A DNA stretch of 64,000 nt, from NCBI GenBank assembly GCA_963665815.1, contig OY762463.1:2285949-2349948 (forward strand), written 5' to 3'. The position numbers were made by a program, and so were the translations under genes. Shown here piece by piece: positions 36,182 to 44,840 of this stretch; positions within the stretch are counted from its first letter, which is position 1, and every line of letters begins with the position of its first letter. The notes below the pieces were generated by a model. It did not search any database, was not told the origin of the DNA, and saw nothing but the letters and a program-made list of their open reading frames with translations. This DNA is from Candidatus Cloacimonadales bacterium (GTDB lineage: Bacteria; Cloacimonadota; Cloacimonadia; Cloacimonadales; JAIOQZ01).

Positions 36182-36210
36182 AAAAAGCCTGTCAGATTTC
36201 CCTGACAGGC
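36182..36210 (-). terminator. Rho-independent terminator after the T9SS cargo island
   Basis: On the minus strand: GCCTGTCAG-GGAAAT-CTGACAGGC followed by TTTTTG. Confidence 0.7.
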
Positions 36211-36266
36211 TTCTTAACAATTTATGAATTAATGTCAGATTGTTTCTACATTAATTGACATTCTGG
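36208..36266. repeat. 59-bp perfect direct repeat, left copy (orphan duplicate of the atpC 3' end)
   Basis: Identical to 44782..44840. Contains the last 9 codons (RMSINVETI), the stop and 27 nt of 3' UTR of atpC, detached from any atpC body. Confidence 0.95.
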
Positions 36267-36284
36267 GGAGGCAAATATAAGGTA

Positions 36285-38639
36285 TTATTTCAACATTATC
36301 ATTTTGTTTATCAGCGATGACTTTTCTGTTTTGACTTTATAGAAATATACTCCGGATGCTACGCTCTTGTTGTTTTGGTCTGTTCCGTTCCATTTTATTG
36401 TATGATATCCGCTTTCTTGATTTTTATTTATCAACTGCTTAACCTTCTGCCCCTTAATATTATACACTTCAATACAAACATTGCCTTCTTCAGGAAGACT
36501 GTATGATATGGTTGTGGTTGGGTTGAAGGGGTTAGGGTAGTTGTTAGCTGTAACTTTTGTGTCTCTAAAATCTGAATACTTATTGAAATTGCCCACAGGC
36601 TGCCACTCATAACAGCCCATATCTACAGTACTGCCGTATGTTCTGGTGTTTCCTGCCAGATCAAGCAGTGGGAAATTACTGCCTGCTACTGCTCCGGCAT
36701 CCACGCAGGGACTTGTTTCCTGCAATTTGTAATAGTCTGTGCTTGTGCTGTCTCCTCCGACAAACTCAGGCAAAACATCAATATTGGTGTCTTCGTAAGT
36801 AAGTAGATGCTCGTTTTCTTTGGGTATTACCATAACTGATTGCTCTCCACCTAAAATCAGATTATTACTAATCGTGGAGGAGTTCTGGTGATCTACAGTA
36901 CATATTGCTATTTCTCTGGAATCGTACATAGAATATGGATTGTAGAAAATATTATTATATACGTAAGAATTATTACCCACAATTTCAAACTTAACAAGCT
37001 GATCCTGAAAACTGATATAATTATTAGCAAATGTATTATTCCTGACATATGTGTCACCATAAATAGAACCAATATACCCCACAGCCTGTGCGTTGTATGA
37101 TATATTGTTTACTACAAGGTTGTTATCAAATACAACAAGACTGTCTCCAAACAGAACAAAAGCATTTTCATTGAGAGGAGCATAGCTTGTATTTCCATTG
37201 AATATACTGTTGGACACATAAACAGAGTCTGCTGTTACCCTTACTGCATTATCACAACATTCTATATGATACTCTGTTACCTGATTACCGGTGAACTCGC
37301 AATTGTCTATTACTGCTTTGCCAATCCCAGACATAAATAAACCGGAATTACTATCCGTTGATCTACAATTAAGTATTTTAACGTTTCTCAATTCAGCAGA
37401 CTCGCATCCTTCAATCATTAATCCTGCAAAATTTCGAGCATAGCAGTTTTTTATGACAACATCATCTAGTTGTATCTTCCTACCATTATGCCCTCGGAAA
37501 GTCAGTCCTTCACCTACGGGATTTTCTATAGTTAACCCTGATATTTCAATATCTTTGTATTCATACATTGCATAAACAACACGTCTATCTGAAATATACC
37601 CACCAAGATAAGTGACATCTGAGCCTGCTCCGGCTAATCTGCAATGACTCTTCAATACAGGAGTATTAAATCTATCCAGAAACTGGAGCGAATAATCTCC
37701 GGCTGCAATATGAACAGTTTTGGGATTAAGACTGTCTGCCGCCAAAAGCTTGCAGGCATCTACAATTGAATACTTTGGATCATCGGGTGAAAGTCCGGAG
37801 TTAGCATCATCTCCATCCATTGATACATACAAATCTGCATTTACCGGTGTTATGTGTCCTCTGAGAATGTCAAACTGCATGGGATTTCCTGTATATGATG
37901 AAAATAATCTACTGTAGTTTGCATAATATCGGGATGCAACAGCTTCACTGAACTTATCAAGATAAATCATTATTACTTTATCATAATTTCGGGGAATATA
38001 TCGAATTTCAATATCCATACCTCCATATGCCATATTATTGTATATACTGCATCTGTTCACAGAAGAAAAGATCATTTCTGAAGTTAATTCTGGTTTATAA
38101 CAAACTCCCCCCCCTGACCATGAGAAATTATCATGTATATCAAGCCCGGCTAATTCAATATCTACTTCACCGGAAATATAAATTCCTCCTCCAAGATGAG
38201 TAACTTTATTTTCATAAATATCACAATTTGTAATCTTCATATTGCCATCTGCATTAATACTGATGCCACCACCAACGGGACTAACTCCTCCGTAACCATT
38301 GGTAATTGTAAAACCTCTTATTTCTGCATTGTTTACCTGCTGTCCCCAGATTTCTATTACCTTGCCGACACCACAACCATTTAGTATGGTTTCTGCAATA
38401 TAATGATTTTCTCCGGTTAGTGCTTCCATTGAATAAAGTTTTATGCATCTACCGTTAAAATTAAGATTTACTGCATAAAATCCAGGATATACAAGTACAA
38501 TATCACCATCGGATGAGCTGTCTATCGCCTGCTGTATATCGGTAAAATCTCCGCTGCCATCAAGGTTTACTGTATGTGTTAAACTTAACAGTATCAATGG
38601 TACTAGTGTAAGTATAAGTATTGCAAGCTGCTTTTTCAT
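36285..38639 (-). CDS. T9SS-sorted secreted protein with right-handed parallel beta-helix repeats (island paralog A)
   Basis: Signal peptide MKKQLAILILTLVPLILLS. Repeated N-x-h-x-x-N beta-helix-like segments (NNTFANNY, NNLVVNNISY, SNSIFNGNTS). C-terminal NYPNPFNPTTTISYSLPEE...GVYFYKVKTEKSSLINKMIMLK is a T9SS C-terminal domain. Confidence 0.8.
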   Translation of the reverse strand: MKKQLAILILTLVPLILLSLTHTVNLDGSGDFTDIQQAIDSSSDGDIVLVYPGFYAVNLNFNGRCIKLYSMEALTGENHYIAETILNGCGVGKVIEIWGQQVNNAEIRGFTITNGYGGVSPVGGGISINADGNMKITNCDIYENKVTHLGGGIYISGEVDIELAGLDIHDNFSWSGGGVCYKPELTSEMIFSSVNRCSIYNNMAYGGMDIEIRYIPRNYDKVIMIYLDKFSEAVASRYYANYSRLFSSYTGNPMQFDILRGHITPVNADLYVSMDGDDANSGLSPDDPKYSIVDACKLLAADSLNPKTVHIAAGDYSLQFLDRFNTPVLKSHCRLAGAGSDVTYLGGYISDRRVVYAMYEYKDIEISGLTIENPVGEGLTFRGHNGRKIQLDDVVIKNCYARNFAGLMIEGCESAELRNVKILNCRSTDSNSGLFMSGIGKAVIDNCEFTGNQVTEYHIECCDNAVRVTADSVYVSNSIFNGNTSYAPLNENAFVLFGDSLVVFDNNLVVNNISYNAQAVGYIGSIYGDTYVRNNTFANNYISFQDQLVKFEIVGNNSYVYNNIFYNPYSMYDSREIAICTVDHQNSSTISNNLILGGEQSVMVIPKENEHLLTYEDTNIDVLPEFVGGDSTSTDYYKLQETSPCVDAGAVAGSNFPLLDLAGNTRTYGSTVDMGCYEWQPVGNFNKYSDFRDTKVTANNYPNPFNPTTTISYSLPEEGNVCIEVYNIKGQKVKQLINKNQESGYHTIKWNGTDQNNKSVASGVYFYKVKTEKSSLINKMIMLK

Positions 38640-38829
38640 AGGTTTCCTTCTTTTGAAATTCTCCTCTATAAAGAGGAGTACTCCGCTTTGCGGAGGGAGG
38701 TGTGTCTCACACCTTCCGAATGGACTTTGTCCTTCCGAATGGTGTGAGATATATTTATTTATTATTGTTAAACCTCAGCCTGTCCTGACTAAATCAGGAC
38801 AGACAGCTCCCTGTATAGGGAGCACTCTT

Positions 38830-43817: not shown

Positions 43818-44289
43818 TATTTTCTCCTTCTGTGGAGACGAGAAAAAACTTGCACACAAATCATAATCCTGCAATGATGTATTCAGGAAATGGGTTTGTT
43901 GCGGTCTTCTTGCCGGAAGCTATTGTTTGCATTCTCATTTCCGTTTATTGATACTATAATATTGTCATTTTGAAATGGAGTATTTAAGAAACCAGATTAC
44001 TACATTAAGAGAACCTTACTCAGGGAAAAATACATACTTATAAAGAAACACAACTACATATCTGCAAGAATTCAAAATATTGTCTAAGAGCTTTTATCTG
44101 TTGAAACTGTAGATGAATTTCATCGAAGCTCTTTTAATTCTACACCGATATAAAACTTTCCATTTGATCAATTGAGAACAAATCTGGGGGAGGCATGTCA
44201 AGGTATTTTTGCGTATTTTGGAATCCCCCCGTTTTTTCTTGAAAATCTGACTTCAAGATAACTGGAAGGATTTTATCAGACATTTCTTA

Positions 44290-44464
44290 GAAAAATGCAC
44301 TATTCATTTTCTTTGATGCCAAAGAAAACGAAACAAAAGAAAATTGAGAAGTTGATGAAATTGTAAATTTCATCAAAAAGCACTCTTTTTAAAATGTATT
44401 TCCAGTAAACTGGAACCATGAATTTTCCCTAAAATCCTTCCAAGGCTTCAGGATTTCTTAACGG
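44290..44464. repeat. Intergenic structured repeat, copy 2
   Basis: Matches 5719..5857. Carries an extra 39-nt insert containing the hairpin TTGATGAAATT-GTA-AATTTCATCAA. Confidence 0.8.
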
Positions 44465-44753
44465 TTAAATTTATTATACAGTAAAAAAGAGAAAATGCTA
44501 TCATCAATGCAAAACAATCATACTTAGTTCAAAGCTATTACATTGATTCATATTTTCCACTGATTTAATGTTTCAAAACTTTTATTTATAATAAGTTATA
44601 CATACATTGTATTTGGTTTTCGGGGGGATACCTAATTTTTGCGTATTTTCATTTAATTTTTCAGCGGTATGCAAATCAATCTGTTATTGCTCATAACCGA
44701 AATATCAATACGATTTCAATGAAAGTATGTAATCCCTCATTTTAATTATAAGC

Positions 44754-44783
44754 AAAAAACCCCATCGAATTTCTCCGATGGGG
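44754..44783 (-). terminator. Rho-independent terminator of the atp operon
   Basis: On the minus strand: CCCCATCG-GAGAAATT-CGATGGGG followed by T6. Confidence 0.8.
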
Positions 44784-44840
44784 CTTCTTAACAATTTATG
44801 AATTAATGTCAGATTGTTTCTACATTAATTGACATTCTGG
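44782..44840. repeat. 59-bp perfect direct repeat, right copy (authentic 3' end of atpC)
   Basis: Identical to 36208..36266. Confidence 0.95.

Follow-up and report, generated by a model that had tools for sequence, protein, structure and literature searches.

In the genome of a Candidatus Cloacimonadales bacterium we analysed a stretch of 64,000 nucleotides (contig OY762463.1, positions 2,285,949 to 2,349,948 of the forward strand; hereafter the window), in which a segment holding three genes for cargo proteins of the type IX secretion system (T9SS) is bracketed by two identical 59-bp direct repeats, each of them a copy of the 3' end of atpC, the gene that closes the ATP synthase (atp) operon. 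A preliminary description had read this pair as the footprint either of site-specific integration (the attachment-site repeats attL/attR of a mobile island) or of a duplicative insertion. We consider it probable that the pair is a fixed scar, left by one old event of recombination or duplication without site specificity, that this scar is at least as old as the ancestor of the two species of the genus, and that it is not an att pair. The history of the repeat rests on three genomes: the source genome (G000, one contig of 3,963,599 bp, here C1), a sister species (G001, an independent metagenome-assembled genome (MAG) and the sole other species of the same genus in the genome collection), and a third, more distant relative (species 3, L053) which is a member of the 90% cluster of AtpC and whose atp operon DNA is 87.6% identical to that of the source genome.

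The two copies agree at 59/59 bases (36208-36266 and 44782-44840; the repeat search reported them as a 62-nt direct repeat, 36208-36269/44782-44843, 98%, with one mismatch), are spaced 8574 nt apart with 8515 bp in between, and are the only two copies in the source genome (as found by a whole-genome search and by an exact 30-mer scan); chance is excluded as the source of the repeat. In its anatomy the locus is as the preliminary description had it: the repeats are identical, the right copy (U59-R) is the genuine end of atpC (being contiguous with the Pfam-identified gene), the left copy (U59-L) is an orphan with an intrinsic terminator of its own (TL), and the accessory genes are flanked on either side by a copy of the atpC 3' end. 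The identity breaks off sharply at 36266/36267, where the orphan runs on with GGAGGC and atpC with CGATTG. As would be expected of a displacement scar, the orphan lies in direct orientation beyond the new DNA and has no homology past its distal junction, while the end of atpC itself is intact.

The sister species carries the orphan at the syntenic place, with TL past it and with the same 18 nt and the end of a cargo gene before it, and its two repeat copies differ from each other by 2 substitutions and a 3-nt indel. Because the orphan is found at the same site there, slightly diverged, the duplication predates the split between the two species. An arrangement that proved ancient and fixed in relatives, with diverged repeats, had been named beforehand as evidence against site-specific integration, and this is the arrangement present in the sister species, the sole relative with the locus. 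Moreover, because an independent MAG has the same orphan copy, the left copy is no assembly artefact, and a misjoin as its source can be set aside with near certainty (the sister assembly contains both orphan junctions and the source genome is one contig). Around the segment the window and the sister genome are broadly syntenic (34200-36553 at 92% and 44635-55399 at 93%). Exact-protein look-ups of AtpC and of the solute-binding protein (SBP) encoded left of the orphan yielded no closer relative, an AtpC scan of metagenomes returned relatives of at most 63% identity only, and six genomes at the family level (G002-G007) had neither synteny nor an orphan copy downstream of atpC.

That the segment is accessory, as first described, is borne out by its content, which differs between the relatives. 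Homology between the two species breaks at 36553 (within the part of cargo gene 1 that codes for the sorting domain), resumes at 44056 (80-87%) and again at 44635, and where the source genome has its three cargo genes, the sister species encodes an FG-GAP and a beta-helix cargo together with two unknown proteins. The interval over which the two species differ (36553..44056) is bounded by the repeat coding for the sorting domain on one side and by a shared upstream element on the other, with its breakpoints inside the pair of 59-bp repeats. The closest relatives of cargo 1 are found at other loci (on contig C5 of the sister genome, 93%; at C1:1436004, 88%), cargo 3 has paralogues at C1:1441146-1443677 (66%) and on contig C14 of the sister genome (62%), and the closest relatives of cargos 1-3 in the sister species lie on other contigs and in non-syntenic contexts. 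Each of the two genomes harbors more than 100 open reading frames (ORFs) with a sorting domain. Furthermore, the source genome has a second three-gene array (C1:1435998-1444508, between a lipoprotein gene and an EF-G-like gene) that is paralogous to 36282-44640 of the window at 79-96% identity, the homology beginning 3 nt past the stop codon of cargo 1 and ending at the right end of a miniature inverted-repeat transposable element (MITE); neither direct repeats nor mobility genes were found around this array at 1.436 Mb. Because of this second array, of the non-syntenic relatives in the sister species and of the more than 100 ORFs with a sorting domain, we conclude that paralogous arrays exchange genes with the segment through homologous recombination and gene conversion. 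The MITE of the second array lacks a matching target duplication and is preceded by the same left flank as at the atpC locus, an indication that this tract was copied from there.

The third species bears on the question of which copy is native. Its atpC ends with the 3' untranslated region (UTR) and with a terminator of the type that follows atpC in the source genome (TR) (CCCATCGGAGCAATTCGGTGGG; AAGCCCATCGGAGCAATTCGGTGGGCTTTTT), and its homology with the window ends at 44755, just past TR. Downstream stands a MacB operon, with no cargo array, SBP gene or DUF3667 gene there, and no second copy of the atpC end was found within the 20 kb of the atpC neighbourhood that were compared. Because atpC of species 3 ends in a TR-type terminator, TR is ancestral and the left copy derived. 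The empty site that had been predicted (atpC followed directly by the terminator at 36182..36210 and the gene at 35308..36030) was not found: the site is occupied in the sister species, species 3 has TR and then unrelated genes, and the family-level genomes are non-syntenic. In the source genome the MacB operon lies at C1:2387932-2392546 in the opposite relative orientation, which places a rearrangement breakpoint directly past TR. The ~57-kb segment that begins at the atpC terminator and extends to the MacB operon thus has the opposite orientation in species 3 (breakpoints at window position 44755 and at C1:2387932), and the breakpoint at C1:2387932 has no similarity to the island.

Read on the minus strand, the last 8 nt of each repeat copy (AAGAAGCC) form the outer 5' arm of a strong intrinsic terminator, and TR and TL, the two terminators concerned, are the two best terminator-like sites in 35000-45300. 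Their inner stems are unlike (CCAUCGGA in TR, UGUCAGG in TL): that of TL is of a stem type frequent among the terminators of the source genome, and the 13-mer AAAGCCTGTCAGA is restricted in this genome to TL and to a near-twin of it (T2) downstream of the SBP gene. A homology between TL and TR had been considered, as their inner stems differ by transitions only and have a purine/pyrimidine skeleton in common; it was dropped because this skeleton (GCCTGYYRR...) is common among the terminators of the genome.

The orphan has been conserved to a degree that its surroundings have not. Identity between the two species of the genus is 72% in the non-coding DNA at 36031-36182 and 84% in TR with its spacer, as compared to 56/59 (95%) in U59-L and 100% in the TL hairpin (25/25). 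At a site past the stem, both copies of the source genome have a derived base and both copies of the sister species, together with species 3, have the other base; at a site in the stop codon, the orphan of the sister species has the base of species 3 and the orphan of the source genome that of its own atpC copy. These two informative sites suggest that the two copies evolve in concert, and the perfect identity in the source genome is best explained if the atpC copy later converted the orphan, and should not be taken for a sign of a recent event. Selection on the orphan as a terminator arm or 3' UTR offers a second explanation, and both can apply. Homologous exchange is also indicated in the adjoining operon. 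The ratio of the divergence from the sister species to the divergence from species 3 is 0.07-0.25 in 45000-47000 and, upstream of this, ~0.75 in 52000-55000; divergence is mosaic in atpG, atpD and atpC, and the tract of low divergence stops near the 3' end of atpC. Between the source genome and the sister species, window positions 44800-55221 include up to 600 nt without a difference (46277-46875) as well as 14 differences in 75 nt (47134-47209). Because constraint alone would scale both comparisons alike, the pattern points to a recent exchange of atp operon DNA between the two lineages by homologous recombination.

The most likely origin of the scar would start from DNA that carried an atpC end, a terminator and a downstream cargo array, and that would have recombined homologously inside the atp operon of the recipient. 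An illegitimate join 29 nt before the resident stop codon would then have pushed the resident stub downstream (homology-facilitated illegitimate recombination, HFIR). A variant, in which the stub would mark the junction of a tandem duplication with later deletion or trimming, would be equivalent and is inseparable from HFIR here; the duplicative insertion that had been offered as an alternative to integration likewise remains compatible with the data. The right copy and TR are the native end of the atp operon, and the left stub would now serve as the 3' UTR of the last cargo gene and supply the 5' arm of TL. What followed is visible in the comparisons: the genes between the copies have been replaced via homologous recombination and gene conversion, for which more than 100 paralogues with a sorting domain and their common upstream elements served as partners, and a MITE has inserted into the segment, as the empty site in the sister species attests. 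The orphan would have been kept near its atpC copy by gene conversion, by selection on the terminator or by both, as the two informative sites and the excess of conservation suggest.

Four points weigh against such a scar. Incoming and resident DNA with different terminators should also differ in the 27-nt UTR, and the identity observed there needs a later gene conversion (for which only the two informative sites speak). A duplicated gene 3' end around accessory genes is exactly what a degenerate integrative element leaves behind. Within the 59-mer lies an inverted repeat whose 9-bp arms match perfectly (AATTAATGT N12 ACATTAATT), such as is found in only 0.55% of random 59-nt windows of the source genome, and this palindrome can be extended to 13-nt arms (10/13 matched) around a 7-nt centre; a recombinase core site could resemble it. 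Lastly, we infer the ancestral order by parsimony, species 3 being rearranged downstream of atpC and offering no clean empty site.

The most serious alternative, which we regard as unlikely, is that a tyrosine-recombinase element entered the 3' end of atpC in the ancestor of the genus, duplicated the 59-bp core, lost its integrase and had its cargo replaced. Such a degenerate island would be in line with the direct repeats of a gene 3' end around accessory genes, with the difference in content between the two species, and with the rare palindrome; the remaining evidence speaks against it. No integrase or remnant of one is present in the segment of either species (Pfam on all ORFs of the segment in both species confirmed the original statement that none is visible inside, and returned only sorting-domain and unknown proteins), and the non-coding DNA resolves into the MITE, the upstream element of cargo arrays and a spacer with a conserved counterpart in the sister species. 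The source genome has four tyrosine recombinases (PF00589), located at 2.06, 3.29, 3.44 and 3.81 Mb, i.e. 0.27 to 1.5 Mb off the locus (2.32-2.33 Mb). Campbell integration into an attB site in atpC would place the ancestral downstream flank beside the orphan, and what is observed is TR beside the intact gene and TL beside the orphan. No attP-like copy was encountered: the 59-mer is absent from the 201 other genomes of the order (203 with the two of the genus), and viral contigs contain no match to a 24-mer that all four copies have in common. The compositional contrast with the flanks that had been proposed as a check is lacking (GC is flat at 0.36-0.39). Moreover, lineage-specific DNA reaches beyond the left repeat, since orthologues of the SBP and DUF3667 genes on the left side of the orphan are confined to the two species. 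Taken together with the variable part, which the repeats do not bound, and with the want of an empty site, these results leave the interpretation of the 59-bp repeats as attL/attR of a mobile island mostly not supported.

Two further candidates were rejected in this connection. An integrative mobile element exploiting Xer (IMEX) at the dif site was discarded, since the extremes of cumulative GC skew are at 0.54 and 2.72 Mb and the locus does not lie at the terminus. At C1:3289536-3291418 an Xer-like tyrosine recombinase gene (316 aa; C1:3289536-3290486) is followed by a degraded gene similar to cargo 1, in which N- and C-terminal pieces are fused and an internal stop is present; as a partner of the 59-mer this recombinase was dismissed, for it stands among housekeeping genes and has no tie to the 59-mer.

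We give little credence to the view that the copies form a maintained, still-recombining pair (by conversion, with occasional deletion, excision or amplification) in which the hairpin and the terminator arm act as a common 3'-end module; if this were true, the population would obtain switchable or copy-number-variable T9SS surface proteins anchored at the end of the atp operon. A RecA-dependent crossover, or a recombinase acting in trans, might on this view delete, excise or amplify the array between the copies in part of the population. An identity of 59 bp suffices for low-frequency RecA recombination (RecA minimal homology), the copies are perfect direct repeats 8.5 kb apart, and their concerted evolution shows that they interact; however, both species keep the array, and species 3, which is array-less, does not have the structure expected of a deletion (U59 -> TL -> SBP), so that a working substrate of this kind appears very improbable.

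It is also possible, at a low probability, that the orphan is retained mainly as a functional RNA module, whose hairpin across the stop codon and terminator arm would equip the cargo mRNA with the same 3' end as the atp mRNA or with the trans-acting partner of that mRNA. The orphan with TL is conserved at 95-100% (72-84% in neighbouring non-coding DNA), the same two hairpins are found in all four copies of the two species with folding z-scores of -4.3 to -6.8, and the stem AUUAAUGU/ACAUUAAU is retained in species 3 despite an altered loop. On the other hand, the first hairpin (which spans the stop codon) was not found at the atpC ends of other genera, Rfam gave no match above threshold, substitutions avoid the stem no more than chance would have it (estimate ~0.23), and gene conversion alone can explain the conservation. 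We retain the old, fixed scar as the probable origin of the repeat pair; the coordinates of the features involved are collected in Table 1.

Table 1. Features of the segment between the two copies of the atpC 3' end and of its borders (window coordinates).
Feature	Position	Strand	Description
U59-R	44782..44840	minus	Native atpC 3' end, contiguous with the rest of the gene; comprises 29 coding nt, the stop codon and a 27-nt UTR; atpC of species 3 has the same region at its end
U59-L	36208..36266	minus	Orphan copy of the atpC 3' end; 18 nt past the stop codon of cargo gene 1; also in G001
TR	44753..44790	minus	Intrinsic terminator of the atp operon; 17-bp stem, GAAA loop; 5' arm begins inside U59-R; orthologous to the atpC terminator of species 3
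TL	36181..36216	minus	Intrinsic terminator past the orphan; 16-bp stem, GAAA loop; identical at 25/25 positions in G001
T2	35256..35284	minus	Near-twin of TL (86%), downstream of the solute-binding-protein gene
atpC	44809..45219	minus	ATP synthase epsilon subunit, 136 aa; Pfam PF02823 (ATP-synt_DE_N) and PF00401 (ATP-synt_DE); 98% identical in G001, ~91% in species 3
Cargo gene 1	36285..38639	minus	784 aa; T9SS C-terminal sorting domain PF18962 (37.3 bits, cut-off 27)
Cargo gene 2	38830..41184	minus	784 aa from the ATG at 41184 (longest ORF reaches 41232); tandem paralogue of cargo 1, 2545-nt period
Cargo gene 3	41295..43820	minus	841 aa from the ATG at 43820 (longest ORF reaches 43874); only the sorting domain in common with cargos 1 and 2
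Upstream (promoter-region) element of cargo arrays	44056..44219	minus	TTGACA hexamer at 44196-44201; twice in the G001 island (87%, 80%); identical at C1:1443906-1444124
MITE	44220..44634	plus	415 bp; inverted ends GGAATCCCCCCG / CGGGGGGATACC; 15-nt target duplication ATTTTTGCGTATTTT at 44205-44219 and 44635-44649
SBP_bac_3 gene (solute-binding protein)	35308..36030	minus	Left of the orphan; sole orthologue in G001 (95%)
DUF3667 membrane-protein gene	34188..35006	minus	Sole orthologue in G001 (94%); next best 40%

The three genes of the segment had been described as encoding paralogous T9SS-sorted beta-helix proteins, of which the sorting holds for all three and the rest in part or not at all. 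The Por_Secre_tail domain (PF18962) was detected in each protein (36-37 bits, cut-off 27), and the translocon protein SprA of the T9SS (TIGR04189) is encoded at C1:2496140-2500786 (461 bits summed, cut-off 200). Paralogy is confined to cargos 1 and 2 (88% identity over 784 aa), cargo 3 matching them over the 88-aa sorting domain only, and Pfam detected no beta-helix in the three cargo proteins of the source genome.

Several observations concern the neighbouring genes. The SBP gene is flanked by the near-twin terminators TL and T2 and is a candidate for horizontal acquisition; outside the genus its next best match is at 55%, and most others are from Pseudomonas (~42%). Farther left, an RND efflux-pump gene (31112..34195) and its surroundings (29503-34200) are absent at the syntenic site of the sister species, in which the flanks are ~35 nt apart, reflecting either an insertion in the source genome or a deletion in the sister species. 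The alignment of the two species also breaks at 35074-35179, a small repeated element (~106 nt, containing a 14-bp inverted repeat) with three further copies in the source genome (C1:3274848, 403809 and 2957730; 78-84%). In a related Cloacimonadota metagenome contig (L051, JGI 3300009314, Ga0117908_1000052) the atp operon itself is interrupted at 6009-8588, where a gene for an N6_N4 DNA methyltransferase and one for an unknown protein of 420 aa lie between atpG and atpD.

The 991-bp non-coding stretch of the preliminary description indeed contains no ORF of at least 60 codons (43875-44808), and is now accounted for by the MITE, the upstream element and the spacer from 44650 to TR, which is 84% identical in the sister species. 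A weaker similarity that had been noted between 36262-36286 and 44183-44207, and taken as a hint of a more complex history, is present; its significance is not established, as the left sequence has ~20 equally good matches genome-wide and 9/300 local shuffles reach its score, and for the former reason its reading as a remnant of the upstream element was dropped. The MITE belongs to a family of ~380-420 bp with inverted ends TGGAATCCCCCCG / CGGGGGGATGCCT and target duplications of 10-17 nt (mostly 13-17), of which the source genome holds 17 copies at 82-97% identity (e.g. C1:75563-75988, 2412804-2413221 and 3278253-3278664), and an empty site for it is seen at the atpC locus of the sister species. 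All the marks by which such an element is recognised are present, i.e. terminal inverted repeats, a target duplication, many copies, no ORF and the empty site of a relative; an autonomous partner was searched for and not found. A TTGAC(A) hexamer (-35-like) is found 18-25 nt away from the element in 14 of 16 copies, on the same side each time. An internal core of ~110-200 nt (44290-44496 in the MITE of the atpC locus) occurs alone at many further loci of the source genome (5719-5890 of the window and no fewer than 13 others) and is also present in the sister species (L029 1131-1238), which suggests related MITE subfamilies.

The case carries a caution, since a perfect repeat of a gene 3' end around accessory genes looks att-like and comparison reveals a scar that is old and yet undecayed. 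Furthermore, the locus gives a compact example of how Cloacimonadota (with more than 100 T9SS cargo genes per genome) reshuffle this cargo via sorting-domain repeats and upstream elements beside a conserved anchor operon, and it indicates that an orphan of 59 bp can long stay identical to its source, apparently through gene conversion or reuse of the terminator. The MITE family may be a more unusual object than the repeat pair: like other MITEs it has terminal inverted repeats, a target duplication and multiple copies (17), is devoid of ORFs and is missing from its site in the sister species, and unlike them it makes unusually long target duplications and in most copies lies ~20 nt from a TTGAC(A) hexamer.

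As in the concerted evolution of short dispersed repeats by gene conversion, the copies within the source genome are identical and have a derived base in common while the orthologues differ; the substrate is merely 59 bp here, and the comparison concerns two sites. Islands mobilised by tyrosine recombinases reportedly enter the 3' ends of tRNA, tmRNA and protein-coding genes and are delimited by attL/attR repeats. The present segment shares with them accessory genes between direct repeats, by which the target gene regains its 3' end. It departs from them in lacking an integrase, an empty site and a compositional signal, in having its ancestral terminator on the wrong side, and in that the variable part is not delimited by the repeats and the arrangement is fixed in both species. 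The closest likeness in organisation is to the orphan-stub arrays of Rhs, contact-dependent inhibition (CDI) and type VI secretion system (T6SS) loci, and displacement has been proposed for the orphan 3' stubs in T6SS and Rhs arrays (PMC5361080, citing Jackson 2009, Poole 2011, and de Vries & Wackernagel 2002). There, as here, a conserved upstream gene with an intact 3' end has a displaced copy of that end in direct orientation past variable genes, no integrase is involved, and mosaic recombination is found in the conserved upstream region. The anchor in Cloacimonadales is, in contrast, a housekeeping atp operon and not a polymorphic toxin gene, the stub is a single one (29 coding nt and UTR) and not a string, the genes that arrive encode T9SS cargo and not toxin-immunity pairs, and displacement is here a putative mechanism.

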